From: Planctomycetia bacterium
GTDB lineage: Bacteria; Planctomycetota; Planctomycetia; Pirellulales; UBA1268
NCBI GenBank assembly: GCA_037129475.1
Contig: JBAXUY010000004.1
Coordinates: 2,111-66,110 of the forward strand
Length of the DNA stretch: 64,000 bases
Direction of reading: 5' to 3'
Made by a program: the position numbers and the translations under genes
Part shown: positions 5,783-30,117 of the stretch, piece by piece
Layout: each line of letters opens with the position of its first letter
Position numbering within the stretch: position 1 is the first letter of the stretch
Notes under the pieces: generated by a model
What the model was told of the DNA's origin: nothing
Database searches by the model: none
What the model saw: the letters and a program-made list of their open reading frames with translations, nothing else

Positions 5783-5901
5783 GCGGCGGAGCTCCAGCCC
5801 TGTCGTTGCCTCGTAGCGACGGAGCTCCAGCCCTGTCCTTGCCTCGTAGCGACGGAGCTCCAGCTCTGTCGTTGCCGACAGGCCTGGAGGCCTGTCGCTA
5901 C
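5783..5901 (-). repeat. REP/BIME-like cluster: three B-type units (GTAGCGACGGAGCTCCAGC[C/T]CTGTC) plus one A-type unit in reverse orientation (CGACAGGCCTGGAGGCCTGTCGCTAC)
   Basis: The palindromic units were read directly from the sequence. The terminal CTAC of the A unit (5898-5901) contains the TAG stop of the lipoprotein gene on the minus strand. Confidence 0.9.
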
Positions 5902-6152
5902 TTCACCTCGGCCAACTCTTTTTTGTAGGCCTTGAGCGCGGCGGCTTCCTTCGAGAGTTTGAACTCGGGGCCGGCCGGGAAGTATTGAATGTCGTCCTGC
6001 AGGTAGTAGGCGCTGGGCAGCGTCTGGCCGCCCACGTCCACCTGGCACCCGGTCAGCGAGAGCCCGGCCAGGCCGAGGGCGGCGAGCCCCATGATGCGGG
6101 CCGACGTGACGGCGATTTTCGAAGGACTGATGGTCATCGGCGACTGACGCAT
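5898..6152 (-). CDS. Small lipoprotein (84 aa)
   Basis: This is the C-terminal part of track ORF 5898..6674: MRQSPMTISPSKIAVTSARIMGLAALGLAGLSLTGCQVD..., with a lipobox LTGC after a hydrophobic signal. The longer N-terminal extension has shadow-like composition. Confidence 0.6.
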   Translation of the reverse strand: MRQSPMTISPSKIAVTSARIMGLAALGLAGLSLTGCQVDVGGQTLPSAYYLQDDIQYFPAGPEFKLSKEAAALKAYKKELAEVK

Positions 6153-6387
6153 GGCAGCGGTTCCTGCGTGAGGTTCGAGAGAGGTATCGGCCGTCACGAC
6201 CGGAAAACTTTGGGAAACCGCTACAACCGGACCGCAGCAGCAGCCCAAATCGCCCAACCTTCCCACTCTGGAGCGGCAGATTGGCAATCTGCCGTGTCGG
6301 CCGCCGTGTGCAGACTGCCAGTCTGCACCTACAAAAGCGGGTGCGTCGGCTCCACAGCCCCGCGCTCCTTTCCGGTACAACGACGTC

Positions 6388-9300
6388 ATGTTTCGCCGTG
6401 CCGTCTGCGTGCCGTGCCTGCTGTCGGCGGTGATCTTCGTTGCGCTGCCGTCCAGCGCCCGTTCGCAGATCGTGCTCCAGCCGGGCCTGGGAGGCGTGCA
6501 GGGCGGCCGCACGGTGCCCACCGCGGGGTACGACGCAGCGCTTGTCGCACTCGCAGCCGGCGACTTCGCCAGCGGCCTCGAGATCGCCTCGCAGGAGTAT
6601 CGCGGTGGCATCCGCGCGGGCGCCCAGCGCTGGATCGATTCGATCGCCGCGGCGATGGCAGTGGGCGAGGCCAACTACGAGCTCGGCCGCTTCCGTGAGG
6701 CGATCGCCGCCTACGACGAGGCGCTCCTGCTCTGGGCCACCTACGGCGACTGGCTGCTCGCCGTGCAGTTTCCGCAGCAACCGCTGCGCGGGCTCGCGCA
6801 GCAGCGGGTTGCCACGTGGGGCCGCAGCCAGCGCACCACCGCGCCCGCGGCGATCCCCGATCCGCTCACGATTCGCCAGGGTGGCGCCGACCCGCAGCAG
6901 GTGCTCAAGCAGGGCGGCGTGCTCACGTCCCCGGCCGATTATCCGATCCGGCCGCAGGAGATCGTGCGCAGCCTCGTGATCTCGCTCTATCGGCGTGCCG
7001 AGATCCTCGGCGAGCTGGCCCGCGACGGCGCCGCGCTCGACGATGCCGCGAAGGCGCTGATCCGTCGCCCCGCGCCGCCCAACCACTGGTCGCAGTCGTG
7101 GATCGACGTGTCGCTCGGCGTCGCATATTGGGCGCAAGGCAAGGCCGACCAGGCCACGCCGCTGTTGAACCGCGGCCTGATCGCGGCCAACCAGTTCGAC
7201 CACCCGCTCACGTCGTGGGGCTTGATTGTGCTCGGCCGGATCGCGCTCGACGCCGACCAGCCTGCCGCGGCGCTCAAGTATTTCGAGGAGGCGACCTACA
7301 CCGCCGCCGACTACGGCGATGCGCGGGCGCTCGAGGAGGCCTTTCGCCTGGCGTTCACCGCGCACATGGCTGCAGGCACCGGCGCGATGCCGCCCGCCTT
7401 CGGCCTGGCGAGCGAGTGGGCCCGAGCCAATCTGCCGGCCATGCGGGCCCGCCTGCTCGCGATGCAGGCCGAGGGCCTCGCCGTCGCCGGCAACCTCAAG
7501 GCCGCGTCGGCCGCGCTCGACGAGATCGACGGCCGGCTGCTCCGCGGCGATTTCGGCCGGGGCACGTGCGGCATCCAGGCCGCCTACGCTGCGGCGCTCG
7601 TCGCCTATCGCTCGGGCGAGATTGCCTCCGGCGACACGCAGCTCGACCGCGCGCTCTCCCTGGCGCAGCCCCGCACGCCGAAGCTCTTCCAGACCGCGCG
7701 GCTCGTCGAGCTCGTGATGGGCGGTGCGACGACGATCTCCGACCGTCAGGCCGACGCTCTGTTCACGAAACTCCTCGGCGATCCCGCGCCGCGCGACTTC
7801 ACGCTCGATCCGGTCGGCACGCTCGCCACGATGTCGGCGCCGCGCCGCGAGGCGTTCGAGGCCTGGCTCGCCCCCGCGTCGCGCCGCGGCCACGATGCCT
7901 TCCTCGCCGCTGGAGAAGCCCGGCTCCGCAGCCACTGGCTCTCGTCCCAGCCGCTCGGCGGCCGGCGCACGGCGCTCGAAACGCTCGCGGGTGCAGCCCC
8001 CGAAGTGCTGCCGCGAGCCGCTGCCGCCCGCCGTGCCGCGCTTCTCGCCCGTCATCCCGATTTCGCCCGCGTGCTCGACGAGGCGGCGAAGCAGCGGCCT
8101 GCGCTCATCGCCGCGCTCGCGGCGCCCGCCGGCGGCCCGGCGCAAGACGTAGGCTGGGATTCCTACGCAGCGCTCGGGCGGCAGCAGCGCCAGTTCATCG
8201 CGGCGCTCGCCGCCAGTCGTGAGCCGACCACGCTCGACTTCCCTCCGCTCGATGCCCCTGCCGACGTCCGGCGTCGCCTCCCCGACCGGCATCTCATCCT
8301 GTCGTTTCAGTGGACGGCGGCCGGCCTTGCGGGGTTTCTCGAATCGAACGCCCGCGTGGCCACGTGGCAGATCAAGCGACCGGTGGCGCTCGCCAAGGAG
8401 ATCGCGGGCCTCACCAAGGCGATCGGCATCGTCGACGCCGTGGCGCCGGTCTCCACCGAGCGCATGCTCGAGACCGAGTGGCCCGCCGCGGCCGAGCGGG
8501 TGGAGCGGCTGCTCTTCGAAAACTCGAAGGTCTCGCTCGGGTCCGGCGTCGAAGAACTCGTGATCGTGCCCGACGGTCTGCTCTGGTATCTGCCGTTCGA
8601 GCTGTTGCCCGTGGGCTCGGCCCGCGAGGTGGCCGTCGACGATCCGGCCGCGGGAAGCGCCGGCCCGCGCGCGCTGCTGCGCGACGCCTGCCGCATCCGC
8701 TACGCACCCACCCGCAGCCTGGCGGTGCGCCGGTTCGAGCCGGCGGCCGTCGACGGCATGCTCGGCGTTCAGGCGGTGCGGCCGTTCCGGGGCGATCGAC
8801 CCGAGGTCGGTGCCGCGGTCACGGCCCGGTTTGCGGAGGCGTTCGACAGGGTCGTGTCGCTCTCCGCCGCAGGCTCGGCCGCACTTGCCGCCTCGCTCTG
8901 TGATCGGCTCGTGCTCGCCGACGAACTCGTGGGCGACGGCCCGATCGCCGAGCGGCCGCTCGCTGTGAACGTGTCGGGCAAGCCCGGGTTCACGTTTGGC
9001 GACTGGCTCTCCCCGCCGCCGAAGCGGCCGCAGCTCGTGATCGTGCCCGGGCTCCAAACGGAGATGGCCGACGGCCTCGCCAAGCTGCCGGCGCGGCCCG
9101 GCGACGACCTGTTCGTCGCGGCCACCGACCTGCTCGCCGCCGGGGCCACCACGGCCGTCGTGAGCCGGTGGCGCGTGGGGGGCAAACTCGCCGTCGATCT
9201 CGTCGAGGAGTTTCTGCGTGATCTGGACGTCGAGCCGGATGCCGACGACGAAGCGCCGCAGGTCCGATCGCGGGTCGCCGCGAGCTGGCAGCGGGCGGTC

Positions 9301-10337: not shown

Positions 10338-10373
10338 TTTTGATTCCGCGACTCGCATCGATAGTTTGATGGC

Positions 10374-10688
10374 ATGAACCCTGTCGCATCAAAAATAGAG
10401 ATTGTCGGTCGGCTGCAGGCAATTGCTGACCGCATGCACGGGCTTGGAGTCAATCGAGTGTCTCTGTTCGGGTCGTGGGCTCGCGATGCTGGCCATGAGG
10501 CAAGCGACATCGACCTGCTGGTCGAGTTTCGTCCGCGCGAAAAAACATTCGCGCGGTACGTCGAGCTCGCCGAGTTGTTCGAGGCAGTTCTCGGGCGGCC
10601 GGTGGATCTCGTCACGACGGACGGCCTCTCACCGCATATTGGCCCGAAGATTCGGGAAGAGGCTGTCGATGTCGTTCGCGCCGCATGA
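10374..10688 (+). CDS. mntA: MntA-type nucleotidyltransferase antitoxin
   Basis: 104 aa with the minimal NTase motif LFGSWARDAGHEASDIDLLVEF. It overlaps the downstream HEPN gene by 20 nt. Confidence 0.85.
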   Translation: MNPVASKIEIVGRLQAIADRMHGLGVNRVSLFGSWARDAGHEASDIDLLVEFRPREKTFARYVELAELFEAVLGRPVDLVTTDGLSPHIGPKIREEAVDVVRAA

Positions 10689-11016
10689 CTACCCGCGACA
10701 CATCCTGGATGAATGCGATTTTCTCCTCGACACCGCGGCCGGCGTAACCGCCGAGGCATTCCTTGCCGACAAGACGCTTCGGAGAGCCTTTCAACGGAGC
10801 CTGGAAGTCATCGGCGAGGCCTCGAAGCAACTCTCCGGAGACTTTCGGTCAACACATCCTGATCTCCCGTGGAGGGAAATGGCTGCCATGCGCGACCGAT
10901 TGATTCACGGCTATTTTGGAGTCGACGACGCAATCGTCTGGGACGTCGTGCAGTCGCACATTCCACTTGTTCGCGCGGCTGTGCTAGAGATTCTCACTGG
11001 CTACGATGACGGCTGA
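10669..11016 (+). CDS. hepT: HepT (DUF86, HEPN-domain) toxin
   Basis: The internal ATG at 10669 of track ORF 10402..11016 gives MSFAPHDYPRHILDECDFL..., with the HEPN Rx4H motif in RDRLIHGYFGVD. The size (115 aa) is typical. Confidence 0.85.
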   Translation: MSFAPHDYPRHILDECDFLLDTAAGVTAEAFLADKTLRRAFQRSLEVIGEASKQLSGDFRSTHPDLPWREMAAMRDRLIHGYFGVDDAIVWDVVQSHIPLVRAAVLEILTGYDDG

Positions 11017-11061
11017 GAGGCTTTCAACGGTTTTTTCTCTGAAAGCGTCGCACCCGTGCCC

Positions 11062-11149
11062 GTAGGGACGGAGCTCCGACTCTGTCCATTCGACAGGCCT
11101 GGAGGCCTGTCGCTACAAGCATTCAACAGGCCTGGAGGCGTGTCGCTAC
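11062..11149 (-). repeat. REP/BIME-like cluster (B unit, A unit, degenerate A unit; GTAG heads on the left for B and CTAC tails for A)
   Basis: The units are gtagggacggagctccgactctgtcc, cgacaggcctggaggcctgtcgctac and caacaggcctggaggcgtgtcgctac. Confidence 0.9.
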
Positions 11150-11155
11150 AAGCCC

Positions 11156-12028
11156 ATGCTCGTCGAAACGGTCGATCTCACGAAGCGGTATGGCGCGTTC
11201 ACGGCGCTCGATTGCTGTTCGTTCGGCGTGCGCGAGGGGGAGATCTTCGGCCTGCTCGGCCCCAACGGTGCCGGCAAGACCACGCTCCTGCGGCTTTTGC
11301 TCGGGTTCATCCACCCCACGGCCGGCTCGGCCCGCGTGGCCGGGTTCGACTGCGTGGCCGAGTCGCTCGCCGTGCGGGCCCGCACGGCCTACCTGCCCGG
11401 TGAGGCCCGGCTGTTTCGCCGCATGAACGGCTTTCAGACGCTCGACTTCTTCGCCGGGCTGCGCCGCGAATGTCGGCGCGACCGGGCCGCCGAGGTGGCC
11501 CGCCGGCTCGATCTCGACTGTTCCCGGCAGGTGGCCCGCATGAGCACGGGCATGCGGCAGAAATTGGCACTCGCCGCGGTGCTCGCCACCGACTCTGCGC
11601 TCACGATTCTCGACGAGCCCACGGCCAATCTCGACCCCACGGCCCGGGCCGAGGTGCTCGCGCTTGTCCGCGAGGCCCGCGCGGCGGGCCGCACCGTGAT
11701 TTTTTCGTCGCACGTTCTCTCGGAAGTCGAAACCACCTGCGACCGCGTGGCGATCGTGCGGGCCGGGCGGCTCGTGCACGAGCAGTGCATCGCCGATCTG
11801 CGCCGCAGCCACCGGATCACGGCCCGGCTGGCGGGCGCGTGGAAGGCGATCCCGGCCGAACTCGAGTCTCACGCCACGCTCGTCTCCCAGCGCGACGGCC
11901 GCGTGGTGCTCGAGTCGGGCGACTCGCTCGCGCCGCTCCTCGGCTGGCTGGCCACGCTGCCGCTCGACGAAGTGCAGATCGAGCCCGTGGGGCTCGGCGG
12001 CATCTATGATCGCTTCCACCGTATGTAG
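11156..12028 (+). CDS. ABC transporter ATP-binding protein (ABC-2 type system)
   Basis: It has Walker A GLLGPNGAGKTT, signature MSTGMRQKL and Walker B LTILDEPTANLD. Its stop TAG lies inside the GTAGGGAC head of the next repeat. Confidence 0.9.
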   Translation: MLVETVDLTKRYGAFTALDCCSFGVREGEIFGLLGPNGAGKTTLLRLLLGFIHPTAGSARVAGFDCVAESLAVRARTAYLPGEARLFRRMNGFQTLDFFAGLRRECRRDRAAEVARRLDLDCSRQVARMSTGMRQKLALAAVLATDSALTILDEPTANLDPTARAEVLALVREARAAGRTVIFSSHVLSEVETTCDRVAIVRAGRLVHEQCIADLRRSHRITARLAGAWKAIPAELESHATLVSQRDGRVVLESGDSLAPLLGWLATLPLDEVQIEPVGLGGIYDRFHRM

Positions 12029-12115
12029 GGACGGAGCTCCAGCTCTGTCCATCGACTCCACGTAGGGACGGAGCTCCAGCTCTGTCCATCGACAGGCCTG
12101 GAGGCCTGTCGCTAC
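12025..12115 (-). repeat. REP/BIME-like cluster (B, B, A in reverse composite orientation)
   Basis: Two copies of gtagggacggagctccagctctgtcc are followed by cgacaggcctggaggcctgtcgctac. Confidence 0.9.
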
Positions 12116-12126: not shown

Positions 12127-12957
12127 ATGTTCAATACCGCTATCTGGAAAAAAACGTGGGGCGACCAGCGCGTGCTGGTGCTGTCGTTCGTCGCACTCTG
12201 GTCGGCGTTTCCGTGGATCTACATCTGGCTGTCGTCGCAGATCCCGATGCCCGCCTTTCAAGACGTGCTGCTGCGGGCGATCCCGCAGGATTGGCAGCGG
12301 CTCTCCGGCGTGCCGTTTTCCGAGGTGGCCACCCATGCCGGCCGCGTGGCGCTCGCGTTCGTCGATCCGGTGGTGGTGCTCGCCGCCACGGTGTTCGGGA
12401 TCACACGCGGCAGCGATGCCGTGTCGGGCCCGCTCGAGCGGGGCACGATGGAGATGGTGCTCGCCCAGCCTGTGAATCGCGTGGCGGTGTTCGTGTCGCA
12501 GGCGCTCGCCACGATTGCGGCGGCCGCCCTGCTCTCGGCCGTGCTCTTCGGCGCCGCGGCGTCGGCGGTGGCGCTCGGGCCGTGGGCGGGCAAGGTCGAT
12601 CCGCTGCGGCTGGTGCCTGCGGCGCTCAATGTGTTTGGCCTCATGGTGTGCATGGCAGGGATCTCGGCCTGCGTGTCGGCGGCCGACAGTTACCGCTGGC
12701 GCACGATCGGGATCATGTGCGGGTTTTACGTATTCGCGATCCTGGCGAAGCTCGTGGGCCGGCTTTCCACCACGCTCGGCTGGTGCGGCTATTTCTCGAT
12801 CCTCAACGCCTACGAGCCGCAGCGGCTGGTGGGCGATCCCGCCACGGCGTGGAGGCTGCTGCTGGCCTACGACGGCGTGCTGCTGGGCCTCGGCCTCGCG
12901 GCATATGCGGTGGGAGCGTGGGTGTTCGCGAAACGCGACCTCCCCGCGCCGCTGTAG
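12127..12957 (+). CDS. ABC-2 family transporter permease
   Basis: 276 aa and multi-TM, lying immediately downstream of the ATPase. Its stop TAG is the TAG of a GTAGCGAC repeat head. Confidence 0.75.
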   Translation: MFNTAIWKKTWGDQRVLVLSFVALWSAFPWIYIWLSSQIPMPAFQDVLLRAIPQDWQRLSGVPFSEVATHAGRVALAFVDPVVVLAATVFGITRGSDAVSGPLERGTMEMVLAQPVNRVAVFVSQALATIAAAALLSAVLFGAAASAVALGPWAGKVDPLRLVPAALNVFGLMVCMAGISACVSAADSYRWRTIGIMCGFYVFAILAKLVGRLSTTLGWCGYFSILNAYEPQRLVGDPATAWRLLLAYDGVLLGLGLAAYAVGAWVFAKRDLPAPL

Positions 12958-13113
12958 CGACAGGCCTCCAGGCCTGTCGAAATTCCCACGTAGCGACGGG
13001 CCTCCAGGCCTGTCGAAATTCCCACGTAGCGACAGGTCTCCAGGCCTGTCGAAATTCCCACGTAGCGACAGGCCTCCAGGCCTGTCGAAGGACAGAGCTT
13101 GATCTCTGTCCCT
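12954..13113 (+). repeat. Tandem REP array: 4 A units at a 36-nt period followed by one inverted B unit
   Basis: A-unit starts at 12954, 12990, 13026 and 13062, each followed by the linker aaattcccac. The array ends with ggacagagcttgatctctgtccct. Confidence 0.95.
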
Positions 13114-14897: not shown

Positions 14898-15059
14898 GTA
14901 GCGACAGGCCTCCAGGCCTGTCGAAATTCCGACGTATCGACGGGCCTCCAGGCCTGTCGGATTTCCGTCGTAGCGACAGGCCTCCAGGCCTGTCGGATTT
15001 CTTTCGTAGCGACGGGCCTCCAGGCCTGTCGCCGGACAGAGCTGGAGCTCTGTCCCTAC
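14898..15059 (+). repeat. Tandem REP array: 4 A units (36-nt period) plus an inverted B unit
   Basis: A-unit starts at 14898, 14934, 14970 and 15006; the B unit is ggacagagctggagctctgtccctac at 15034-15059. Its CTA (15056-15058) is the minus-strand TAG stop of the next gene. Confidence 0.95.
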
Positions 15060-15628
15060 ATTCCCACACGTCGCGCGGCGGCAGTGTTGCCGGCACGTTG
15101 CCAGGCCTTGAACGCCAGCTGTCTCGCGTCGGCTGCGAGGTCGGTGCGGCCGTCGGTGTCGGCTCGCGTCGCAATCCGTTCGGCCGCCTCGGCGAGCCGC
15201 GTGGCGCGGGCGGGGTCGAGCGGCCGCAGCGGGATCTCGGCGAGCGATTCGAATTCGATCGCGAGTTCGTCCACGTCGAACACGGCCGACGTCAGCGTGA
15301 CGGCGCGGCTCACGATCTCGGCGCTGCCGGCGGCGGCTCCGAGCCGGCGGGCCTCGTCGAGCATGAGCCACTTGAGGGCGGTCTGCGGCTCCTCGTGGGC
15401 GGCGGCGAGGAGCGTGTCGGCGGCGGTGCGGGCGCCGGCCGCGGTTTCGGTGTGGGAGAGGGCGCCTTTGAACCGGGCCTTGAGGGCGGCGCGGGCGTCC
15501 ACGAGGTCGCGCTGCGAGGGGGGCCGGGGCAGGGCGGCCGAGGCGGGCAGTTGCCGCATCGTGGGGCGATCCTCGGCGTGGGCGGCCGAGGCAAGGATGA
15601 TCACGAGCAAAACAGCGCGGAGCGGCAT
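15056..15628 (-). CDS. Secreted hypothetical protein (190 aa)
   Basis: The track ORF 15056..15805 begins inside the repeat array. The ATG at 15628 gives MPLRAVLLVIILASAAHAEDRP..., a signal peptide. The helical Ala-rich body resembles the N-terminal module of the 33255..34697 protein. Confidence 0.6.
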   Translation of the reverse strand: MPLRAVLLVIILASAAHAEDRPTMRQLPASAALPRPPSQRDLVDARAALKARFKGALSHTETAAGARTAADTLLAAAHEEPQTALKWLMLDEARRLGAAAGSAEIVSRAVTLTSAVFDVDELAIEFESLAEIPLRPLDPARATRLAEAAERIATRADTDGRTDLAADARQLAFKAWQRAGNTAAARRVGM

Positions 15629-15631
15629 CTC

Positions 15632-15792
15632 GTACCGACGGGCCTCCAGGCCTGTCGGATTTCTCTCGTAGCGACGGGCCTCCAGGCCTGTCGGATTTCT
15701 TTCGTAGCGACGGGCCTCCAGGCCTGTCGAAGGACAGGGCTGGAGCCCTGTCCCTACTTTGCCAAAGGACAGGGCTGGAGCCCTGTCCGTAC
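15632..15792 (+). repeat. Tandem REP array: 3 A units (36-nt period) plus 2 inverted B' units (GGACAGGGCTGGAGCCCTGTCC)
   Basis: A-unit starts at 15632, 15668 and 15704; the B' units are at 15732-15757 and 15767-15792. Confidence 0.95.
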
Positions 15793-15801
15793 GGGCGCGG
15801 C

Positions 15802-16224
15802 TCACCGGCGTGGGTAGAAGTGCGACAGGTTTTGATACGTCGAGGCGTGGCCGGTGGGGCGGATCGTCTCGTCGACCTGCCGGCTCGTCGTGTCACGCTG
15901 GATCTGCTGCACCTGGTTTTGCAGCCGTCCGAGTTGCCGCGTTTGGCTCTGCTGCTCAATCACCTGCTGCTGCTGCTGGAGCTGCGGCTGGATGATCTGC
16001 TGATAGATCAACGAATTGTTGGCAACGGCGCCCGTCTGATTGTTGACTGTCATCGGACTTTGCGGGTTCCCCATCAGTGTGTAGGGGCTCACCGCCGGCC
16101 GCGAGTAAATGTTTGAAAATGGCAATTTTCCATTCCCCTGCGCCGCGGCCGTGCCGGCCAGGCCGAGGCTCACACCGGCCGCCACGACGACCACAACTGC
16201 CCACATCCGCGTCTGCCGTGTCAT
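15802..16224 (-). CDS. Secreted Gln-rich hypothetical protein
   Basis: GAGGAG lies 7 nt upstream of the ATG at 16224. The product has signal peptide MTRQTRMWAVVVVVAAGVSLGLAGTAAAQ followed by a Q-rich coil (QQIIQPQLQQQQQVIEQQSQTRQLGRLQNQVQQIQ). Confidence 0.6.
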   Translation of the reverse strand: MTRQTRMWAVVVVVAAGVSLGLAGTAAAQGNGKLPFSNIYSRPAVSPYTLMGNPQSPMTVNNQTGAVANNSLIYQQIIQPQLQQQQQVIEQQSQTRQLGRLQNQVQQIQRDTTSRQVDETIRPTGHASTYQNLSHFYPRR

Positions 16225-21573: not shown

Positions 21574-22631
21574 TCGCCGCTGCGCCTTCCATGCCTCTCA
21601 TCGTCTTCTGGTCGGTGTGGTCGCTCACGGCGCTGATCGCGTCGGCGCTCCTGTCCGCCAAGTTGATCGATTGGGCCGCGGCCCGCGGGGCGGTTGACGT
21701 TCCCAACGCCCGTAGCAGCCACAGCCGGGCCACGCCCCGCGGGGGTGGGCTGGCGATCGTGGCGGTCGCAGCCGTGGCCGGCGCGGTCGTCTGCCTGCTG
21801 CACCCCGAGTCGATTCGGTCCGTTCTCGGCCTGATTCTGCCGGCGCTCGTGATCGCGGCCGTGAGCTGGCTCGACGACGTGCGCTCGCTGCCGAACCGCG
21901 TCCGGTTCGCGGTGCATCTCGGCTGTGCGGCTGCGACCGTGGCAGTTCTGGGGCCGGTGCAGAGCGTCGATCTCGGCTCGTTCGGCACGCTTGATTTCGG
22001 TCCGGCAGCATGGCCGCTCACGCTGCTCTGGATCGTGGGGCTCACGAACGCCTTCAACTTCATGGACGGCATCGATGGCATCGCCGGCATCACGGCGGGG
22101 ATATCCGCGGCGGCGATTGCGGCCGTCGCAGCAGTCGTACAAGCCCCGGCGATCGGGGGCATTGCCGCGGCATGCGCAACGGCATCGTGCGGCTTTCTCA
22201 CCTGCAATTGGCAGCCGGCGAGAATCTTCATGGGCGACGTCGGCAGCGCGTTCTGCGGCTTCGTGCTCGCCGTGCTGCCGCTTGCGTTTCCAGCGCATGC
22301 AGTCCCGACCGCCGTGGCTGTCGCCGCAGCGGCTCTGTGGCCGTTCATTTTCGACACGGCGTACACGATCGTGCGGCGGCTGCGCAAACGGGAAAACATC
22401 TTCCGGGCGCACCGCAGCCATCTCTACCAGCGGCTGGTGATCGCGGGCTGGTCGCACGCGGTCGTGTCGACGCTGTATGGAGTGCTCTCGGCGCTGGCGG
22501 CCGTGTGCGCCGTGGTGCCGCTCATCGCGCCAGAGTGGAGAGCGGCTGCAGATATCGGCGCCGGCGCCACGATCGGTCTCGGGACCGTATTCCTGCTTGC
22601 GCTCGTGTTCGTTTCGGAACAAAATACGTAG
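21570..22631 (+). CDS. Polyprenyl-phosphate HexNAc-1-phosphate transferase (MraY/WecA family, polytopic PGT)
   Basis: It is multi-TM, with VPNARSSHSRATPRGGGLAIV, WLDDVRSLP and NAFNFMDGIDGIAG motifs. The start is either GTG 21570 (GTGA overlap) or ATG 21591. The track ORF start at 21402 lies inside the DegT gene. Its stop TAG lies in a GTAGCGAC repeat head. Confidence 0.85.
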   Translation: MIAAAPSMPLIVFWSVWSLTALIASALLSAKLIDWAAARGAVDVPNARSSHSRATPRGGGLAIVAVAAVAGAVVCLLHPESIRSVLGLILPALVIAAVSWLDDVRSLPNRVRFAVHLGCAAATVAVLGPVQSVDLGSFGTLDFGPAAWPLTLLWIVGLTNAFNFMDGIDGIAGITAGISAAAIAAVAAVVQAPAIGGIAAACATASCGFLTCNWQPARIFMGDVGSAFCGFVLAVLPLAFPAHAVPTAVAVAAAALWPFIFDTAYTIVRRLRKRENIFRAHRSHLYQRLVIAGWSHAVVSTLYGVLSALAAVCAVVPLIAPEWRAAADIGAGATIGLGTVFLLALVFVSEQNT

Positions 22632-22723
22632 CGACAGGCCTCCAGGCCTGTCGGAAAACCACGACTCGCCAGGCCTGGAGGCCTGTCGCCACATACTCGA
22701 CAGGCCTGGAGGCCTGTCGCTAC
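22628..22723. repeat. REP/BIME-like cluster: one forward A unit facing two reverse A units
   Basis: The units are gtagcgacaggcctccaggcctgtcg (22628-22653), cgccaggcctggaggcctgtcgccac (22667-22692) and cgacaggcctggaggcctgtcgctac (22698-22723). The last one ends 3 nt before the next gene's ATG. Confidence 0.9.
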
Positions 22724-23619: not shown

Positions 23620-24980
23620 CCACCGCCGCCAACGCCACCACGATCGCCCACCTCGCCGACGCGCCGGCCGAAGACCGGCTTGCATCGGCCATCGCTCTCG
23701 TCGCCCGCCAGTTCCCCGACCGCACTGCGATCGTCGCAAACGCCGGCGGCGAAGCCCGCCGCGTCATCGACTATGCCACGCTCACCGCCGCGATCGCGAA
23801 GCTCGAAGGCGAACTCGCCGTGGCGCGGCCGGTGGGGATCGTGGCCCGCGCCAAGCGTGTCGAGTCGCTCGTGGTGATCGCCGCAGCCTGTGGCCGGGAG
23901 CATGTGCCGGTGGCGTTCCTCGCCGAGGATGCCCGCGATCTCGTCGGCGAACTCCGCGACTGGGTGCCCCTCGACGACTCGCTCGCGTTGCCCGCCGGGG
24001 CGGCCGCAGGCCCGCGGCGCGAGTTTGAAACCGTGCCGCCGCAGGTGGTCGTGGCCACGAGCGGCACGAGCGGCCCACCGAAGCTCGTCGACCACTCGTG
24101 GGATTCGCTCCTCGCCGCCGCACGGCTGGCCGAGCAGTGGCACGGCCGCGGCTGGCTGCTCGTCTACGACGCCACGCGCTGGGCGGGTCTCCAGGTGTGG
24201 CTCCAGGCGCTGCTCACGGCCGGCCGGCTCGTGGTGCCGGCCTCCCGCGATCCCGATCTCGTGGCCAAGGCGTGCGTCGATGAAGACGTCTCGATCCTGC
24301 CGGCCACGCCCACGCTCCTGCGTCGCCTGATCGCGTCAGGCGACCGTGCAGTGGTCTCCACCATGAAGCTCGACCGGATCACGCTCGGCGGCGAAGCGGC
24401 CGACGCACAGCTTTTGGAGCAGGCCAAGGCGTTGTTTCCGAAGGCAAAAATCACGCATGTCTACGCCACCACGGAACTCGGCGAAGTGTTTCGCGTGACC
24501 GACGGCGAAGCAGGGTTTCCGGTGGAGTGGATCGGCCGGCCGCTGCCGGGGGGCGCGCGACTTTCGATGCGGCGCGACGGCGAGCTGCTCGTGCAGCTCT
24601 CGCGCGACACCGCCGAGGTGGCCACGGGTGATCTCGTGGAGCGGCGTGGCAAGCGGTTCGAGTTCACGGGCCGGCGGAGCGACGTGATCGTGGTGGGCGG
24701 GGCGAAGGTGTTCCCGAAACGCGTCGAGGAGATTCTGCGCGGCGTGCCCGGCATCGCCGATGCGCGGGTCTACGGCCTGCCGAGCGCGATCACAGGCGAG
24801 CTCGTGGCGGCGGAGATCGTGATCCACGAGCCGCTGCCGGCGGGCACCACGCCCGACCAGGTGCGCTCGGCGGCGCTCGCCGTCTGCCGCGAGCGGCTCG
24901 AAGCCCACGGCGTGCCGCGGGTCGTGGACGTCGTCAAGAAGCTCACCCTCACCCCCGCCGGCAAAATCCCCCGCCGCTAA
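23616..24980 (+). CDS. AMP-dependent synthetase/ligase (ANL family; probable acyl-carrier-protein loading enzyme)
   Basis: It has the AMP-binding motif VVATSGTSGPPKLV, YATTELGEV and the C-terminal lysine region PAGKIPRR. Confidence 0.85.
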   Translation: MTTAANATTIAHLADAPAEDRLASAIALVARQFPDRTAIVANAGGEARRVIDYATLTAAIAKLEGELAVARPVGIVARAKRVESLVVIAAACGREHVPVAFLAEDARDLVGELRDWVPLDDSLALPAGAAAGPRREFETVPPQVVVATSGTSGPPKLVDHSWDSLLAAARLAEQWHGRGWLLVYDATRWAGLQVWLQALLTAGRLVVPASRDPDLVAKACVDEDVSILPATPTLLRRLIASGDRAVVSTMKLDRITLGGEAADAQLLEQAKALFPKAKITHVYATTELGEVFRVTDGEAGFPVEWIGRPLPGGARLSMRRDGELLVQLSRDTAEVATGDLVERRGKRFEFTGRRSDVIVVGGAKVFPKRVEEILRGVPGIADARVYGLPSAITGELVAAEIVIHEPLPAGTTPDQVRSAALAVCRERLEAHGVPRVVDVVKKLTLTPAGKIPRR

Positions 24981-24986
24981 CATCCC

Positions 24987-25012
24987 GTAGCGACGGGCCT
25001 CCAGGCCTGTCG
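24987..25012 (+). repeat. Single A-type REP unit
   Basis: The unit is gtagcgacgggcctccaggcctgtcg. Confidence 0.9.
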
Positions 25013-25059
25013 AAACCACCGCCGTCCCCCGAACAGCCGAGCCGACTGTCCCACTTCCC

Positions 25060-25779
25060 ATGCCCACCTCCCTCGTCTCCGGCGGATCGCGTGGGCTCGG
25101 GCTGGCTGTCGTGGAGCGGCTGCTCGAGCGGGGCGACCGCGTGGCCACGTTCTCGCGGTCCGGCTCCGAGAGCCTGGCGAAGCTCGTCGCCCGGCATCCG
25201 GGCCGGCTGCACGCTGAAACGCTCGACGCCGCCGACGGCGCCGCCGTGCGCGGCTTCGTGGACCGTGTGGCTGCCACATTTGGCTCGATCGACCACTGCG
25301 TTGCGAATGCGGCGATCGCCCACGAGGGCGTGCTCGCCACGATGGCCGACGCCGAGATCGACGCGATGCTCGCGGTGAACCTCCGCGGCTCGATCGTGCT
25401 CGTGCGCGAGGTGGTGCGGCAGATGCTCGTGGGTGCGGAGCAGCCGTCGATCACGCTCGTCTCATCGGTGGTGGCCGCGCAGGGCAGCCCTGGGCTCGCC
25501 GTCTACGCGGCCACGAAAGCCGGCCTCGAAGGCTTTGCCCGGAGCCTGGCCCGCGAGCTCGGGCCGCGGGGCATTCGCGTCAATGCAGTCGCCCCGGGCT
25601 TTCTCGAAACAGATCTCTCCGCGTCCCTCTCAGCGGAAAACCGTAGCCGCATCGCCCGGCGCACGCCACTCGGCCGCCTCGGTCTACCGGCCGACGTGGT
25701 GGGCGCGATCGATTTCCTCTCAAGCCCCCGCGCCAGCTTCATCACGGGCCAAGTGCTCACAATCGCCGGCGGCGCGTAA
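25060..25779 (+). CDS. Short-chain dehydrogenase/reductase (FabG-like)
   Basis: It has the SGGSRGLGLAV cofactor motif, the YAATKAGLEGFARSLA catalytic YxxxK, and VNAVAPGFLETDL. Confidence 0.9.
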   Translation: MPTSLVSGGSRGLGLAVVERLLERGDRVATFSRSGSESLAKLVARHPGRLHAETLDAADGAAVRGFVDRVAATFGSIDHCVANAAIAHEGVLATMADAEIDAMLAVNLRGSIVLVREVVRQMLVGAEQPSITLVSSVVAAQGSPGLAVYAATKAGLEGFARSLARELGPRGIRVNAVAPGFLETDLSASLSAENRSRIARRTPLGRLGLPADVVGAIDFLSSPRASFITGQVLTIAGGA

Positions 25780-25780
25780 C

Positions 25781-25905
25781 GTAGCGACAGGCCTCCAGGC
25801 CTGCCGAATGTGTCTGGCGTAGCGACAGGCCTCCAGGCCTGTCGAATGTGTCTGGCGTAGCGACGGGCCTCCTGGACTGTCAACGGACAGGCGACTTGCC
25901 TTTCC
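25781..25905 (+). repeat. Tandem REP array: 3 A units at a 38-nt period (third degenerate) plus a decayed B-like remnant
   Basis: A-unit starts at 25781, 25819 and 25857, each followed by the linker aatgtgtctggc. The array ends with acggacaggcgacttgcc. Confidence 0.9.
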
Positions 25906-25940: not shown

Positions 25941-26250
25941 TCAATACACCTCGTCATGCGTCCCAACGGTGAGCAGCGTGATCGTCTCAGCCTCAACGCC
26001 ACGGATCACTTCAGGCGGCCCCACCTCGAACACGATTCGAATGCTATACGTAACGCTACACGCCCAACATCCTTGAAGATCCCCTCGGAGCTTGTGGGAT
26101 TTCAACGACGGGGGCAAACATGTCGGCTTCAAGAAGTTCCACAGCATCCCGAATCTGCTTGCCGAGATCTGGAGAGTGCTTCGAAGCACGTTTCGCAGAA
26201 CGGCGAAACGTGGCTGTGACGTAAACGTGGCGAACCGAGCTTTCGGACAT
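25941..26250 (-). pseudogene. RelE/ParE-family toxin gene interrupted by a frameshift
   Basis: The N-terminal half (MSESSVRHVYVTATFRRSAKRASKHSPDLGKQIRDAVELLEADMFAP) is in one frame (track ORF 26056..26253). The C-terminal half (SLKSHKLRGDLQGCWACSVTYSIRIVFEV...LLTVGTHDEVY) is in another (track ORF 25941..26189). The switch falls at a G5 run at 26110-26114. Confidence 0.65.
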
Positions 26251-26465
26251 CAATTCTCGAGATCTTTCGCGATCTCATCGAGATTGAGAAGGCTAGCCCT
26301 GCCAGCAGCACGGTCAGCGCGTGCCTCGCGTACATCAGCCACAACACGCTCCCGTTCGCGCTCAACAAGCCGACGCCGAACGAGGTGGACGAGTTCAGCC
26401 TGCTCGTCGACGGATAGCCGATCAACTGCTTCGAGGACTTCGTCGAACGCCAGTTTTCGAATCAT
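26250..26465 (-). CDS. Antitoxin partner of the RelE-like gene (71 aa)
   Basis: The ATG at 26465 gives MIRKLAFDEVLEAVDRLSVDEQAELVHLVRRRL... Its TGA shares one nucleotide with the toxin ATG (TGATG). The longer track ORF start at 26600 lies in repeat DNA. Confidence 0.6.
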   Translation of the reverse strand: MIRKLAFDEVLEAVDRLSVDEQAELVHLVRRRLVERERERVVADVREARADRAAGRASLLNLDEIAKDLEN

Positions 26466-26519
26466 GCTTTGAGCCTCCGGACATCCTGCGGTTATAAGTG
26501 TACGGAAGTCTATCTTCTG

Positions 26520-26570
26520 GTCAACGCCATCGCCCCCGGGTTTCTCGAAACAGACCTCTCCGCCTCGTAG
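26520..26570 (+). pseudogene. Orphan fragment of an SDR gene (VNAIAPGFLETDLSAS-stop)
   Basis: The 51-nt stretch translates to 15 of 16 residues identical to VNAVAPGFLETDLSAS of the intact SDR at about 25579-25626. It has no start codon and no upstream coding context. Confidence 0.6.
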
Positions 26571-26578
26571 CCCCAGTG

Positions 26579-26632
26579 GGGCAAGCGTCTCGCTTGCCAT
26601 GCATTCCCGTGGGACAGGCGTCCCGCCTGTCC
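26579..26632 (+). repeat. Two further GC-rich hairpins with GTGG heads (different REP-like classes)
   Basis: The hairpins are GTGG-ggcaagcg-tct-cgcttgcc (26579-26597) and GTG-ggacaggcg-tcc-cgcctgtcc (26612-26632). Confidence 0.75.
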
Positions 26633-26805
26633 GAAGAAAACGCCCAATGGACAGCCGAGACAGCTATCCCACGCACTGCACCAACAGAGCCCTGTCTCTA
26701 CGGTTCACGCAGCGCCGCGAAACTGTTCGATTGTCATTGCTCGCCTCCTTTCGCTGTTGCACCCCGTCTTCCGACACCATGCGTATACGCCTGCTTGGCG
26801 TAGCT

Positions 26806-27018
26806 TCACGCCGCCTGCAAGGGCTCGATTGTGTTCACGTGAATAAGGACGCAATGCACCGCCCGATTCTCTTCGGGATATCCGAGAATCACCTTCGTCT
26901 TCATCACGATCGCGCATTCCGGATGCCGCACCTCGTGGACCTCGCCGTTCGACATGCGGATCGCGAAGGGCTCGAATGGCTGCCGTCGCAGGAATTCGCG
27001 AATCGTGTCGGGATTCAT
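26806..27018 (-). CDS. Small hypothetical protein (70 aa)
   Basis: This is a clean ATG-to-stop ORF with protein-like composition (MNPDTIREFLRRQPFEPFAIRMSNGEVHEVRHPE...). I recognise no function. Confidence 0.55.
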   Translation of the reverse strand: MNPDTIREFLRRQPFEPFAIRMSNGEVHEVRHPECAIVMKTKVILGYPEENRAVHCVLIHVNTIEPLQAA

Positions 27019-27133
27019 GGCGTTGCTCCTTCAAGAAATGGACGCCCGTACATCATACGCTAACGGCGGTCAAGCAACAAGTCATTTCAGAACGCCGGCG
27101 TAGCCTGCAGGGCTGCCGCCCGACGGGTGTATC

Positions 27134-27622
27134 ATGGCTCGCATGAACGCCACGCCGCTGCTCTCGCAAATCCTCCGGGCTCTGCACGAGCATCGGCTTG
27201 AAGCCGTGCTCATCGGCAACGCTGCTGCGGCCGTTCACGGCGCCCCGGTCACCACGCTCGACTTCGACTTCATGTTCCGCGACACCCCCACGAACATGCG
27301 CAAGCTCAAGGCAATCGCCACGGACTTGCGGGCCACGATCCTACGGCCTTTTTATCCAGTCTCGAAGCTCTACCGGGTCGTCAATGAAGACTCCGGCCTG
27401 CAGGCCGATTTCATGCCGGTCATTCATGGTGTGCGCTCCTTTGAGGGGCTACGCTCGCGGGCTGACGCCCGTGATATCGATGGGCTTCGTCTGCTCGTAG
27501 CATCTCTCGACGATATCATTGCAAGCAAGAAAGCTGCGGGCCGTGATCGCGACAAAGCCGTGCTGTCTATTCTGGAACAAACCCGAAAGTCTGCACGCAA
27601 GCGAGGCGCCAATGGCTCGTAA
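27134..27622 (+). CDS. Nucleotidyltransferase-fold protein of unknown function (putative TA/defence component)
   Basis: 162 aa. The segment LEAVLIGNAAAAVHGAPVTTLDFDFMF resembles the beta-strand/GxxA..D.D core of small NTase-fold proteins, and the C-terminus has DDIIASKKAAGRDRD. Confidence 0.6.
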   Translation: MARMNATPLLSQILRALHEHRLEAVLIGNAAAAVHGAPVTTLDFDFMFRDTPTNMRKLKAIATDLRATILRPFYPVSKLYRVVNEDSGLQADFMPVIHGVRSFEGLRSRADARDIDGLRLLVASLDDIIASKKAAGRDRDKAVLSILEQTRKSARKRGANGS

Positions 27623-27794
27623 GAAGCGAGAGCGGGCATCCGAGAGCGCCACGCGGGCAAAGAGTCTTGCCGCTCTCAAAGCCGAGAGCGAGCGGCAGCT
27701 CGACGATCTGATCCAGCGGCGGCTGGCCTTGCCGCTGGAAAAGCGGATGAACTTCCTGCGCCGACGCCTCCCCGGCGGCGGTAGCAGCCTGTAG
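27612..27794 (+). CDS. Small basic ORF overlapping the end of the NTase-fold gene (possible partner)
   Basis: The ATG at 27612 gives MARKKRERASESATRAKSLAALKAESERQLDDLIQRRLALPLEKR... It overlaps the upstream gene by 11 nt. Support is weak: there are no recognisable motifs. Confidence 0.3.
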   Translation: MARKKRERASESATRAKSLAALKAESERQLDDLIQRRLALPLEKRMNFLRRRLPGGGSSL

Positions 27795-27834
27795 GGCGAG
27801 CGTCCCACGGCCATTCCGCGAGTACAATCCCGGC

Positions 27835-28173
27835 ATGCCTCGCCCCGCCGCCACTCCCGCGCCGCGCACGCCGTTCGAGGAGCGGTATCTCGCGCTCGCC
27901 AAGCAGATCTGCCTGACGATGATCCCCGACCCGCGCTACGAGATCTTTCTCTTCGGCTCCCGCGCACGGGGCCACTGCGAGCATGCGAGCGACGTGGATA
28001 TCGGCGTCGCAGGCCCTGAGCCGATTCCGGAAGGCGTGCTGCGGCTGATGGGCGCGCTCGACGAGTCTGACGTACCCTGGCGGTGCCAGGTGATCGACTT
28101 CGCGCTCGTCACCGATGAGAAGTTTCGGACACACGCCTACGAAGGCCGAGAGATATGGCGAGCGGCGAACTAG
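27835..28173 (+). CDS. Minimal nucleotidyltransferase (MNT, HI0073-like antitoxin)
   Basis: It has the motif LFGSRARGHCEHASDVDIGV and overlaps the downstream HEPN gene by 19 nt. Confidence 0.85.
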   Translation: MPRPAATPAPRTPFEERYLALAKQICLTMIPDPRYEIFLFGSRARGHCEHASDVDIGVAGPEPIPEGVLRLMGALDESDVPWRCQVIDFALVTDEKFRTHAYEGREIWRAAN

Positions 28174-28562
28174 GCTACGACAACCTGCAGCGGGCGCTGC
28201 GAGGCTTCGAACAGGCCCTGTCGCTCGACGGCAGCGGCTATCCAGACTTTGTGCGCGACGTGCTCGACAACGGCCGTATCAAGAAATTCGAGTATTGCGT
28301 CGAACTCTTCTGGAAATACCTGCGCTCGTGCCTGATCGCCGAAGGACGCGACGTGCCGAACAGCCCACGGGGAGCGATCAAGGCGGCCCTCGACCGCGGC
28401 TTTATCCTGGAGGCAGAGTATCAGCCAGCCCTCGACATGTTCACCGACCGCAACACGTGCAGCCACATCTACAAGCAGGCGTTGATCCCGGTCATTATCG
28501 CCCGCCTCCCAGCCCACGCCGCCGTGATGCAAGCCATCGCCGCCCGCCTGCCGACCACGTAG
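28155..28562 (+). CDS. HI0074-family nucleotidyltransferase substrate-binding (HEPN) protein
   Basis: It has RIKKFEYCVELFWKYLRSCL...SPRGAIKAALDRGFI...FTDRNTCSHIY (Rx4H-like). Its stop TAG lies in a GTAGCGAC repeat head. Confidence 0.85.
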   Translation: MASGELGYDNLQRALRGFEQALSLDGSGYPDFVRDVLDNGRIKKFEYCVELFWKYLRSCLIAEGRDVPNSPRGAIKAALDRGFILEAEYQPALDMFTDRNTCSHIYKQALIPVIIARLPAHAAVMQAIAARLPTT

Positions 28563-28622
28563 CGACAGGCCTCCAGGCCTGTCGAATGGACATCACGTAG
28601 CGACAGGCCTCCAGGGCTGTCG
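28559..28622 (+). repeat. Two A-type REP units at a 38-nt period
   Basis: Unit starts at 28559 and 28597; the second has one arm mismatch (ccagggctgtcg). Confidence 0.9.
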
Positions 28623-28645
28623 AATGCGTCTGGCGGAACTGGAAC

Positions 28646-29887
28646 TTACGGCCTGTCTGGAAACAACCCCGGCATCCACTGAGATGCCAGCGCCGTCGGG
28701 AAAGCAAACCGCAGCGGCGCCCGCGGCGAGGCCGATGTCACGACTCCGTGCGTCTGCAGGGCAGCCGTAATCCTCCGCGCCGTGCGCTCGCTCGTCGCCG
28801 CGAGCATCGGGATGTCGCCACGTGGCACTTCCCCTCGGTTGAGCAAGGATTCCACGACGGCCAAGGCATGAGGGGGCAGTGTTCCCTTCCGGATCTCATC
28901 CTGAGTCCACAGAATCACGCGCTGGCGGAGCCGATCGGGCTGCACCAACGACGCCATGAAGGTGATCTGATCGAGGCAGACGCGCAGGAAAAACTCCGCG
29001 AAATCAGCCAGGCATTCCGTGCTGAGATTGCCGCGGCCATCGAGACCGCCGTGTCGAAGCTCGTCGCATCGTTCCAGATGCTCCTTGTATTCCGACTCGC
29101 GGCGAGCGAGCCCGCGGGCTATCGACCAGATGCCACCCGTCTCGAGGGCGTCTCGCAGCATGGCATGAGACATCAGTCGCGCAACCCGGCCATTGCCGTC
29201 CGTGAACGGATGGATCCAAAGCAGTCGATGGTGGGCGGTGGCGGCGGCAATGATGGAATCGATCGCCCCCAGCGCTGCGTACGCTTGCTGGAACCTTTCC
29301 ATGAATCGCGGTACGGCTCCGGGGCTGATCGCGACATGCCGTCCGACCGCCACCTGGGTTGTGCGGAATTCGCCCGGCTGAACGGCAGTCCGTGAACCGT
29401 CAGGGTTCGTGATCCACAGAAGATCGTCGGGCAGAAGGGAACAGAACCGTCGATGGATCTCGCGGACTGCAGCTTGCGTGGTAGGTCTTCCGGCGACTCC
29501 GTCTGCGTCGATCCAGGCCTGAACCTCCACGTGCGCCCGGGCTTCGAGCTGCAGGGTTCGTTTCGGGAGATCTTGGCTGTAGTCGTTGCGCAGAGCCCGT
29601 TCAATATCGATCGGATGCGTATCGTGGCCTTCGATCAGGTTGCTGTAGTAGCAGTTCATCGCCCGCACCATGTCGGCGATCGCGGGCACGATCCCGGGCG
29701 GGAGGCTGCTCCGAAGTGCGGCTGACGCTCCCACGACGGTCACTGCCAAGTCGGCCAGATCGTCGCGGCGCTGCTGTGGCTCGCGGACGAGCATCGGCTC
29801 CATCAGGCTGGATGATTCGCCCCGGTCAAAGGCCGGCTCGACAGGCGGCATGTTGGCCGGTTTCTTGGCCGGCTCGTCGCTCGTCAT
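28646..29887 (-). CDS. Fic/DOC family protein (AMPylase-type)
   Basis: 413 aa with the canonical Fic motif HPFTDGNGRVARLM and a C-terminal winged-helix-like tail. Confidence 0.9.
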   Translation of the reverse strand: MTSDEPAKKPANMPPVEPAFDRGESSSLMEPMLVREPQQRRDDLADLAVTVVGASAALRSSLPPGIVPAIADMVRAMNCYYSNLIEGHDTHPIDIERALRNDYSQDLPKRTLQLEARAHVEVQAWIDADGVAGRPTTQAAVREIHRRFCSLLPDDLLWITNPDGSRTAVQPGEFRTTQVAVGRHVAISPGAVPRFMERFQQAYAALGAIDSIIAAATAHHRLLWIHPFTDGNGRVARLMSHAMLRDALETGGIWSIARGLARRESEYKEHLERCDELRHGGLDGRGNLSTECLADFAEFFLRVCLDQITFMASLVQPDRLRQRVILWTQDEIRKGTLPPHALAVVESLLNRGEVPRGDIPMLAATSERTARRITAALQTHGVVTSASPRAPLRFAFPTALASQWMPGLFPDRP

Positions 29888-29987
29888 AACGCCATCCCAG
29901 CAAGCGGTTTATGGATTGCCTGAGCACCGGCGGGCCGGTCTCATGGCCGCTTCATGATACCCCGGCCATCGCCCGCCTGCCGACCAC

Positions 29988-30117
29988 GTAGCGACAGGCC
30001 TCCAGGCCTGTCGAATGCACGTCATGTAGCGACGGGCCTCCAGGCCTGTCGAATGGACGTCACGTAGCGACAGGCCTCCAGGCCTGTCGACGGACAGGGC
30101 TGGAGCCCTGTCGCTAC
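29988..30117 (+). repeat. Tandem REP array: 3 A units (38-nt period) plus an inverted B' unit
   Basis: A-unit starts at 29988, 30026 and 30064; the B' unit is ggacagggctggagccctgtcgctac at 30092-30117. Its CTA (30114-30116) is the TAG stop of the PEP-CTERM gene. Confidence 0.95.

Follow-up and report, generated by a model that had tools for sequence, protein, structure and literature searches.

What are the short palindromes that recur in the intergenic gaps of this stretch of planctomycete DNA, and how did they come to stand there? The stretch, 64,000 nucleotides of contig JBAXUY010000004.1 from a Planctomycetia bacterium of the order Pirellulales (hereafter the window, meaning the whole length analysed), was the subject of a preliminary description that recognised two palindrome families, A and B, each carrying the tetranucleotide GTAG on one side, and read them as repetitive extragenic palindromes (REPs) resembling bacterial interspersed mosaic elements (BIMEs). 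Our analysis supports that reading: the units carry the GTAG head, their hairpin is under selection, they pair head-to-head at extragenic sites, and the family is dispersed in a related genome, lineage-specific and polymorphic in its sites. We consider it probable that the A/B units are a planctomycete family of GTAG-tagged REPs, arranged in doublets like BIMEs or REPINs (REP doublets forming hairpins), moved by a REP-associated tyrosine transposase (RAYT) encoded elsewhere and multiplied into arrays by local amplification.

Reading the clusters and tabulating them unit by unit, we counted 38 units (27 A and 11 B or its variant B') in 11 clusters between positions 5,784 and 30,117, all of them intergenic, a density of 38 units in 24 kb that bears out the first estimate of about 27 A and about 10 B/B' units in 11 clusters. 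A pattern search with the A consensus CGACAGGCCTCCAGGCCTGTCG at ≤3 mismatches returned 27 sites and the B consensus about 10, and there was no match to either in 100 dinucleotide-preserving shuffles. GTAG is exact at most units of the window, the degenerate heads being GTAC, GTAT, GTGG and GGAG, and Tandem Repeats Finder reported arrays with periods of 31, 33, 36 and 38 and copy numbers of 2-3.8. From 30.2 to 64 kb, as first noted, neither the consensus patterns nor a search for perfect hairpins (stem ≥8 bp) found an A/B unit. The clusters are the following.

5784-5901, cluster 1: three B-type units head-to-tail on the plus strand with a period of 33, at 5784 (head degenerate), 5813 and 5846, followed by an inverted A (5876-5897, with CTAC at 5898-5901).
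11062-11149, cluster 2: one B on the plus strand, then two inverted A, the second degenerate; downstream of a HepT-like gene.
12025-12115, cluster 3: two B on the plus strand, then one inverted A; TAG 12026-12028 is the stop of an ATP-binding cassette (ABC) ATPase gene, 11156-12028.
12954-13113, cluster 4: four A head-to-tail on the plus strand (spacer AAATTCCCAC, period 36), followed by an inverted B whose head is degenerate; TAG 12955-12957 is the stop of an ABC-2 permease gene.
14898-15059, cluster 5: four A on the plus strand, head-to-tail, period 36, then one inverted B; between convergent genes, the minus-strand TAG 15056-15058 being the stop of the minus-strand gene 15056-15628.
15632-15792, cluster 6: three A on the plus strand with a period of 36, followed by two inverted B'; a mechanical open reading frame (ORF), 15056-15805, extends across the array.
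22628-22723, cluster 7: one A on the plus strand, then two inverted A, the sole A/A head-to-head case; TAG 22629-22631 is the stop of a glycosyltransferase-4 gene.
24987-25012, cluster 8, plus strand: a single A unit.
25781-25905, cluster 9, plus strand: three A head-to-tail, period 38 (the third degenerate), plus a decayed partner.
28559-28622, cluster 10, plus strand: two A head-to-tail, period 38; TAG 28560-28562 is the stop of gene 28155-28562.
29988-30117, cluster 11: three A on the plus strand, period 38, then one inverted B'; the PEP-CTERM gene 30114-32189 ends in the minus-strand TAG 30114-30116.

Read with GTAG at the 5' end, A and B follow a common plan, GTAG-sGACrGnnCT-CC-AGnnCyGTCs. 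Both palindromes are present where they had been reported, but the loop given for B needed correction: in the GTAG orientation it reads GTAG-GGACAGAGCT-CC-AGCTCTGTCC, with CC as in A. Since the two share this GTAG-first plan, B is a stem variant of A that usually stands in the inverted position. For the stem itself we used 182 units from the window and related A-bearing loci, comprising 39 distinct unit sequences. In two other loci retrieved for comparison, masked runs of N adjoin REP arrays (L064, 6708-6738 and 7264-7352; L150, ~12780-12880), and unit counts there are lower bounds. The GTAG head is exact in 160 of the 182, most of the remainder having GTGG, GGAG or GTAC. Across the 39 distinct sequences, 96.7% of the cells of the 10-bp stem pair and three of its ten pairs change on both sides (CG/GC, AU/GC and GC/CG), a level of pairing unmatched by any of 500 shuffles or by any slid register. 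The compensated pair said to distinguish B from B' (AGAGCT/AGCTCT versus AGGGCT/AGCCCT) is real, relatives adding a third version (ACCT/AGGT), and the argument for selection on the hairpin is upheld by the three compensated pairs together with the overall pairing.

Stem position 5 varies between A-U and G-U (13 of the 39 distinct sequences) and is never A.C, in both the A and B subtypes. Because G.T occurs only on the GTAG strand, the hairpin is kept intact on the GTAG-bearing strand only. This wobble asymmetry, suggestive rather than decisive because the counts are of sequences and not of independent events, would point to a single-stranded form of the GTAG strand, DNA or RNA. A single unit is predicted to fold into the 10-bp stem with a 2-nt CC loop (-17.9 kcal/mol, z = -5.6), and an A/B dimer into two separate hairpins (-36.8 kcal/mol), not one long hairpin. 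Adjacent units in the window and related loci form 62 head-to-head, 30 head-to-tail and 4 tail-to-tail pairs; all but one of the head-to-head pairs (61 of 62) join A with B, GTAG outward, at a spacing of 2-3 or ~15 bp.

We then asked how far the family extends. Among roughly 980 relatives in the permease lineage, the nearest are assigned to Planctomycetia or Planctomycetaceae metagenome-assembled genomes (MAGs). A contig of MAG Planctomycetaceae C1_MAG_00073 (JAIXPT01) has 82-87% DNA identity to window positions 24,154-25,841, and the source is accordingly a planctomycete. An exact look-up of one window protein returned no record. A dispersal scan with one genome per species (pattern GTAGCGACRGGCCTCCAGGCCTGTCG) returned at least 60 A-bearing loci, at least 49 of them on different contigs of C1_MAG_00073 and the others in high-GC planctomycete MAGs and a chromosome labelled Terriglobia; the same 26-mer is present in several MAG species. 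Exact A units on at least 49 contigs of a related MAG would make it less likely that the elements are confined to one region, a possibility raised at the outset. The other early alternative, a known structured RNA, is not supported, with 0 Rfam matches at gathering thresholds in the whole window. The A/B sequence had no match among PLSDB plasmids or IMG/VR viral contigs, and a full-text search of the searchable literature did not find the stem-loop sequence.

Two of the labels attached to A-bearing sequences deserve comment. The Terriglobia-labelled chromosome (OZ240237.1, 3.76 Mb), which is thus assigned to another phylum, carries exact, intergenic A units at three loci (L008, L009 and L011), with a locus G+C of ~0.60. 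We rejected a mobile element as the explanation, since L009 and L011 are a 4.3 kb inverted copy, 98.5% identical, with housekeeping genes; the genes there are those for TsaD, a molybdopterin oxidoreductase and AsmA. Horizontal spread, mislabelling or assembly duplication may account for these copies. An A/B dimer also occurs on a contig labelled Candidatus Kuenenia (L058, CAZDTC010000037.1) with 69% G+C; Kuenenia genomes are roughly 40% G+C, and the contig is probably mis-binned.

Comparison was also made with relatives in which gene order is kept. Permease orthologues led us to three syntenic loci, L150, L151 and L152 (92%, 87% and 85% protein identity), and none of them contains an A/B unit. 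What stands between the ABC ATPase gene and the permease gene differs from one to the next.

Window: B, B, A (98 bp).
L150: two D-type units, of a sister family, GTAG-GACAGGCT-NNN-AGCCTGTC.
L151: one D-type unit, straddling the stop codon.
L152: empty, 9 bp.

Elsewhere in L150, tandem arrays of GTGG-GGCAAGCG-TCCC-GCTTGCC stand where the window has A arrays. In L019, a locus of a closer MAG that does carry A/B, two orthologous sites are occupied with unit numbers that differ from those of the window; the site orthologous to cluster 8 has an A/B'' head-to-head dimer followed by an AT-richer insert of ~0.5 kb (885-1405) that is absent from window positions 25013-25059. The absence of A/B from L150-L152 and the differing unit numbers in L019 indicate that the family is lineage-specific, that its sites are polymorphic and that different hairpin families occupy the same gaps; the first two points are those for which the preliminary description had proposed a comparison with related genomes.

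The units also stand in a close relation to the ends of genes. By our reading of the clusters, 12 gene 3' ends abut units in the window, and every such unit is in the sense (GTAG) orientation. At seven of them the TAG of GTAG is itself the stop codon (plus-strand ends 12028, 12957, 22631 and 28562; minus-strand ends 5898, 15056 and 30114). The first of the minus-strand genes, a small one at 6152-5898 with what looks to us like a lipoprotein N-terminus, stops at TAG 5898-5900 within the A unit of cluster 1. In the family as a whole, 114 outer heads could be evaluated; the TAG of 23 closes a coding frame in this manner, and only one head abuts coding sequence in another frame. Among the orthologue stops compared, TAG is used in 9 of 23. 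The permease has an identical C-terminus (...DLPAPL) in the window and in the three relatives lacking A/B; its stop in the window is ctG-TAG with the REP body directly behind, the REP-less L152 also has ctG-TAG, and L150 and L151 have TGA. Likewise, the glycosyltransferase genes of the window and of L150 each have their own hairpin family, a D-type unit in L150, right after TAG at the same codon position. In this small sample, the data are equally compatible with insertion at an existing G-TAG and with selection keeping protein-preserving insertions. Intrinsic termination was considered as a general explanation of the units and rejected: terminator-like sites number 14 against 10.2 expected from shuffles, and the only units that score are those before the spacer GATTTCTTTC, including two units of cluster 5 that register as weak terminator-like sites.

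The window is unusual in that one arm of the doublet is often reiterated head-to-tail. Array spacers are 10-12 nt long and nearly identical within an array (AAATTCCCAC, for example, occurs three times), and spacer types are common to neighbouring arrays. Upstream of clusters 10 and 11, ~25 bp (28534-28558 and 29963-29987) are nearly identical, CCATCGCC(GC)CCGCCTGCCGACCAC; at 28534 this flank is the 3' end of gene 28155-28562 and at 29963 it is non-coding. The near-identity of the flanks indicates that an array was copied together with its flank, and the array pattern as a whole fits local duplication better than repeated independent insertion.

Taken with what is known of REPs, these observations suggest a scheme. 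The basic module is an inverted doublet of one A and one B, heads outward, each with its own 10-bp hairpin of about -18 kcal/mol, and by analogy with characterised REPs the doublets would be non-autonomous elements. A single-copy HUH/Y1 RAYT elsewhere in the genome would recognise GTAG and the hairpin on single-stranded DNA, cutting and rejoining it. The anatomy of the arrays suggests that after insertion one arm may have multiplied locally, most simply through slippage or unequal recombination, to give 2-4 units head-to-tail with 10-12 nt spacers. Units at gene 3' ends, often providing the TAG stop, would be transcribed as stable 3' hairpins that could protect or end transcripts.

Several results weigh against this scheme. 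Head-to-tail arrays, reported to be rare for GTAG REPs, are frequent in the window. Searched with phmmer and with regular expressions for the HUH...Y motif, neither the window nor the 60 A-bearing loci (355 kb in total) yielded a RAYT. The phmmer queries were E. coli RayT, 22 RAYT/TIRYT proteins from Additional file 5 of PMC3733652 and 40 planctomycete RayT proteins, run against all six-frame ORFs of the window, and Pfam searches covered the ORFs of 1-34.7 kb and two others, leaving out most genes of 35-64 kb; the early statement that the window holds no RAYT gene stands after the phmmer, motif and Pfam searches. None of ~86 RayT loci (80 from metagenomes and 6 looked up) is flanked by A/B, and a search of metagenome contigs for a RayT HUH motif, a gap of 355-385 nt and an A/B REP core had no match. 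A RAYT gene between inverted A or B units, as initially envisaged, was accordingly found neither in the window nor among the 60 A-bearing loci or the ~86 RayT loci. Finally, in the REPs that do flank RayT genes the stem is 8 bp long and the loop is a 4-nt GYNA, as in GTAG-CTGAATTC-GCCA-GAATTCAG. Two ORFs lying between inverted units were tried as RAYT candidates and rejected: that of L012 is a DUF3050 protein and that of L034 looks, from its translation, like an NAD-dependent epimerase, and neither matched any RAYT/TIRYT query.

The phylum does possess such enzymes. Querying with the Rhodopirellula baltica RAYT RB11751 returned a highly conserved family of 863 proteins of ~190 residues. The best 120 of the 863, drawn from various planctomycete MAGs and isolates, are 57-99% identical to RB11751, and JGI labels some of them 'REP element-mobilizing transposase RayT'; none of these 120 has a precomputed Pfam domain, and the HUH and Y-x3-NP motifs are present. 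One of them, P0099, derives from sequencing reads (SRR5260370) and does not belong to the genome of the window. RayT genes are flanked on both sides by GTAG head-to-head dimers at L063, L064, L068, L153 and many of the 80 metagenome loci, the partners typically differing at one compensated stem position (GAATTC versus GAACTC, for instance). Because this arrangement recurs at many loci, REPtrons are common in the planctomycete phylum, and they could be catalogued at ~170 loci from the planctomycete RayT family alone. By analogy with them, we infer a cognate A/B transposase.

A different account, to which we give a small though real chance of being right, is that the units are host-maintained 3'-end elements, stabilisers or terminators, that do without a transposase and spread by local duplication, recombination and gene conversion. 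It sits well with the failure to find a cognate RAYT in the loci searched, with the sense orientation of the first unit at all 12 abutting gene ends (by our reading), and with the near-identical spacers and the ~25 bp flank common to two arrays, which bespeak duplication along with flanking DNA; some units before a T-rich spacer do resemble weak terminators. Local duplication alone, however, would hardly carry the same 26-mer to at least 49 contigs and into several MAG species or leave it completely absent from the closest syntenic relatives; terminator-like sites are not enriched (14 against 10.2 expected), and the GTAG head and doublet plan are those of the REPs beside planctomycete RayT genes. 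There is also a slim chance, slighter than that of the host-element account, that GTAG is, at least in part, an insertion target rather than cargo, bodies integrating 3' of an existing G-TAG stop much as IS200/IS605 elements integrate 3' of a fixed tetranucleotide, and linked with this that an undescribed Y1 enzyme serves A/B and that the units have moved horizontally. Such targeting would explain the native in-frame TAG at seven window sites and at 23 of the 114 outer heads, as well as the ctG-TAG that the permease gene of the REP-less L152 already has; the thought of horizontal movement arises from A/B being identical in several MAG species and the Terriglobia-labelled chromosome and absent from the closest syntenic relatives.

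It is quite improbable that a dimeric DNA-binding protein, be it a regulator or a nucleoid or gyrase-type protein, recognises the 22-bp palindromes in double-stranded form. Their perfect symmetry would suit such a role, and binding of IHF, gyrase and Pol I has been reported for the REPs of E. coli (PMC6006769), but the compensatory changes keep pairing and not sequence, only one strand shows G.T where the other would have A.C, and the units stand at gene 3' ends rather than at promoters, in arrays of up to five. The regular 36-38 bp spacing might also recall a CRISPR-like array, a known structured RNA or an assembly artefact, readings that are scarcely credible given spacers of 10-12 nt conserved within each array (those of CRISPR are unique and ~30 nt or more), no Rfam family at threshold and the same units in many independent assemblies. 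A transposase-mobilised REP family remains the reading that we favour.

How does this family compare with those already known? Di Nocera et al. 2013 described two REP superfamilies, tagged with GTAG and with CGTC, from >80 species belonging to 8 phyla (PMC3733652), and Quentin et al. 2018 treated REPtrons and Y1 classes (PMC6006769). The remark in the preliminary description that REPs of this kind were characterised mainly in Proteobacteria overstated the implied novelty, as GTAG REPs had already been found in R. baltica, whose GTAG-20/21 families are covered, and the list of strains analysed names two Planctomyces genomes, Planctomyces limnophilus and P. brasiliensis (PMC3733652). In that survey, GTAG REPs have complementary stem variants, G.T pairs, predominantly head-to-head dimers, heterodimers and sites downstream of genes; ~10% of the units lie at the ends of coding regions, and head-to-tail arrays are rare or absent in most genomes (PMC3733652). 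The A/B units share with this superfamily, which includes the SMAGs of S. maltophilia, a GTAG at one end of a short GC-rich palindrome, complementary stem subfamilies, G.T pairs, head-to-head dimers, location downstream of genes and some overlap with gene ends; they differ in their 10-bp stem and 2-nt CC loop, in head-to-head pairing that is almost strictly heterotypic and in their frequent head-to-tail arrays. Like the BIMEs of E. coli (Y and Z subtypes) and the REPINs of Pseudomonas, they have two inverted subtypes as a basic unit, sometimes reiterated, and form a lineage-specific family with polymorphic insertion sites; unlike these, they reiterate one arm head-to-tail instead of alternating subtypes, and their cognate RAYT or REPtron is a matter of inference.

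Nearer in phylum are the rba_11751-like RayT REPtrons (L063, L064, L068, L153 and many of L070-L149), which also have GTAG and outward heterotypic dimers, sometimes with head-to-tail runs beside the gene, and in which the TAG of GTAG is in some cases the RayT stop. Their REPs have the 8-bp stem and 4-nt GYNA loop in place of the A/B stem and loop, and none of the A/B-bearing contigs examined encodes that RayT. IS200/IS605 elements, mobilised by the Y1 transposase TnpA, resemble A/B in their subterminal hairpins with an adjacent tetranucleotide and in single-strand chemistry (PMC6006769), and differ in that A/B units are 26 nt, non-coding and probably of high copy, with no transposase gene between the hairpins.

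Why do the units stop at 30 kb? The G+C content of the window is 59-74%, and its genes include those for PilM, MraZ, a CHAT/TPR protein, TauE, an ABC-2 transporter, TPR proteins and enzymes of polysaccharide export and biosynthesis. The part from 30 to 64 kb is a tightly packed polysaccharide cluster, almost entirely on the plus strand, whose products from 30.2 kb on include, by our reading of the translations, glycosyltransferases, an ABC-2 exporter, methyltransferases and a carbamoyltransferase-like protein. Of the gaps of at least 60 bp, ~11 of 15 in the first half contain A/B units, as against none of the 7 in the second half (Fisher p = 0.004), and as these seven gaps are unoccupied, lack of space alone does not explain the missing units. 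Mean third-position G+C is 0.70 in 30-64 kb versus 0.84 in the first half, and the polysaccharide cluster may have been acquired more recently.

Small genes of toxin-antitoxin type are another feature of the surroundings. Next to cluster 2, the interval from TauE to the ABC ATPase (10338-11155) contains a HepT-like gene, and by our reading the ORF before it has a GSxxR...DxD motif resembling MNT nucleotidyltransferases. The orthologous gap is only 73-188 bp in L150-L152, and the HepT/MNT-like genes look like a candidate toxin-antitoxin pair inserted at a REP site. Extra DNA stands beside a REP in the ~0.5 kb insert of L019 too, and to our eye this insert may code for a small toxin-antitoxin pair of RelE/ParE type. 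Between 25900 and 30000, where G+C is lower (0.60-0.64), small toxin-antitoxin or defence-type genes are interleaved with REP arrays: a weak YafQ-like match, a DUF2204 nucleotidyltransferase, an NTP_transf_2 and NTase_sub_bind pair and a Fic/DOC protein. Two or three further GTAG/GTGG hairpin families occur in the window at low copy.

6270-6331: two units from another family of GTAG hairpins, CGGCAGATT-GGC-AATCTGCCG and, on the minus strand, GTAG-GTGCAGACT-GGC-AGTCTGCAC; related hairpins occur in L150 and L151.
26580-26632, plus strand: two minor hairpins, GTGG-GGCAAGCG-TCT-CGCTTGCC and GGACAGGCG-TCC-CGCCTGTCC; the family of the former is the one arrayed in tandem in L150.

The arrays have a practical side as well. 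The mechanical minus-strand ORF 15056-15805 renders cluster 6 as three TGLEARRYE repeats, and its true start is probably the MPLRAV codon at ~15628. REP arrays create spurious ORF extensions of this sort in automatic annotation and break assemblies, and annotators of planctomycete MAGs should recognise them.

The A/B units are a previously undescribed sequence family of the known REP/BIME kind, in a phylum from which that kind had already been reported, and they leave known REP biology unchanged. Slightly beyond the textbook picture are the near-strict pairing of A with B, the strand-specific wobble, the frequent sharing of stop codons, the head-to-tail arrays and the presence of unlike families in equivalent gaps of related genomes. 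Knowledge of REPs is good for enterobacteria and pseudomonads and much thinner for other bacteria, and A/B adds a clean case from the planctomycetes. Since other hairpin families hold the same gaps in relatives of 85-92% protein identity, the family offers a usable system for REP site choice and family replacement.

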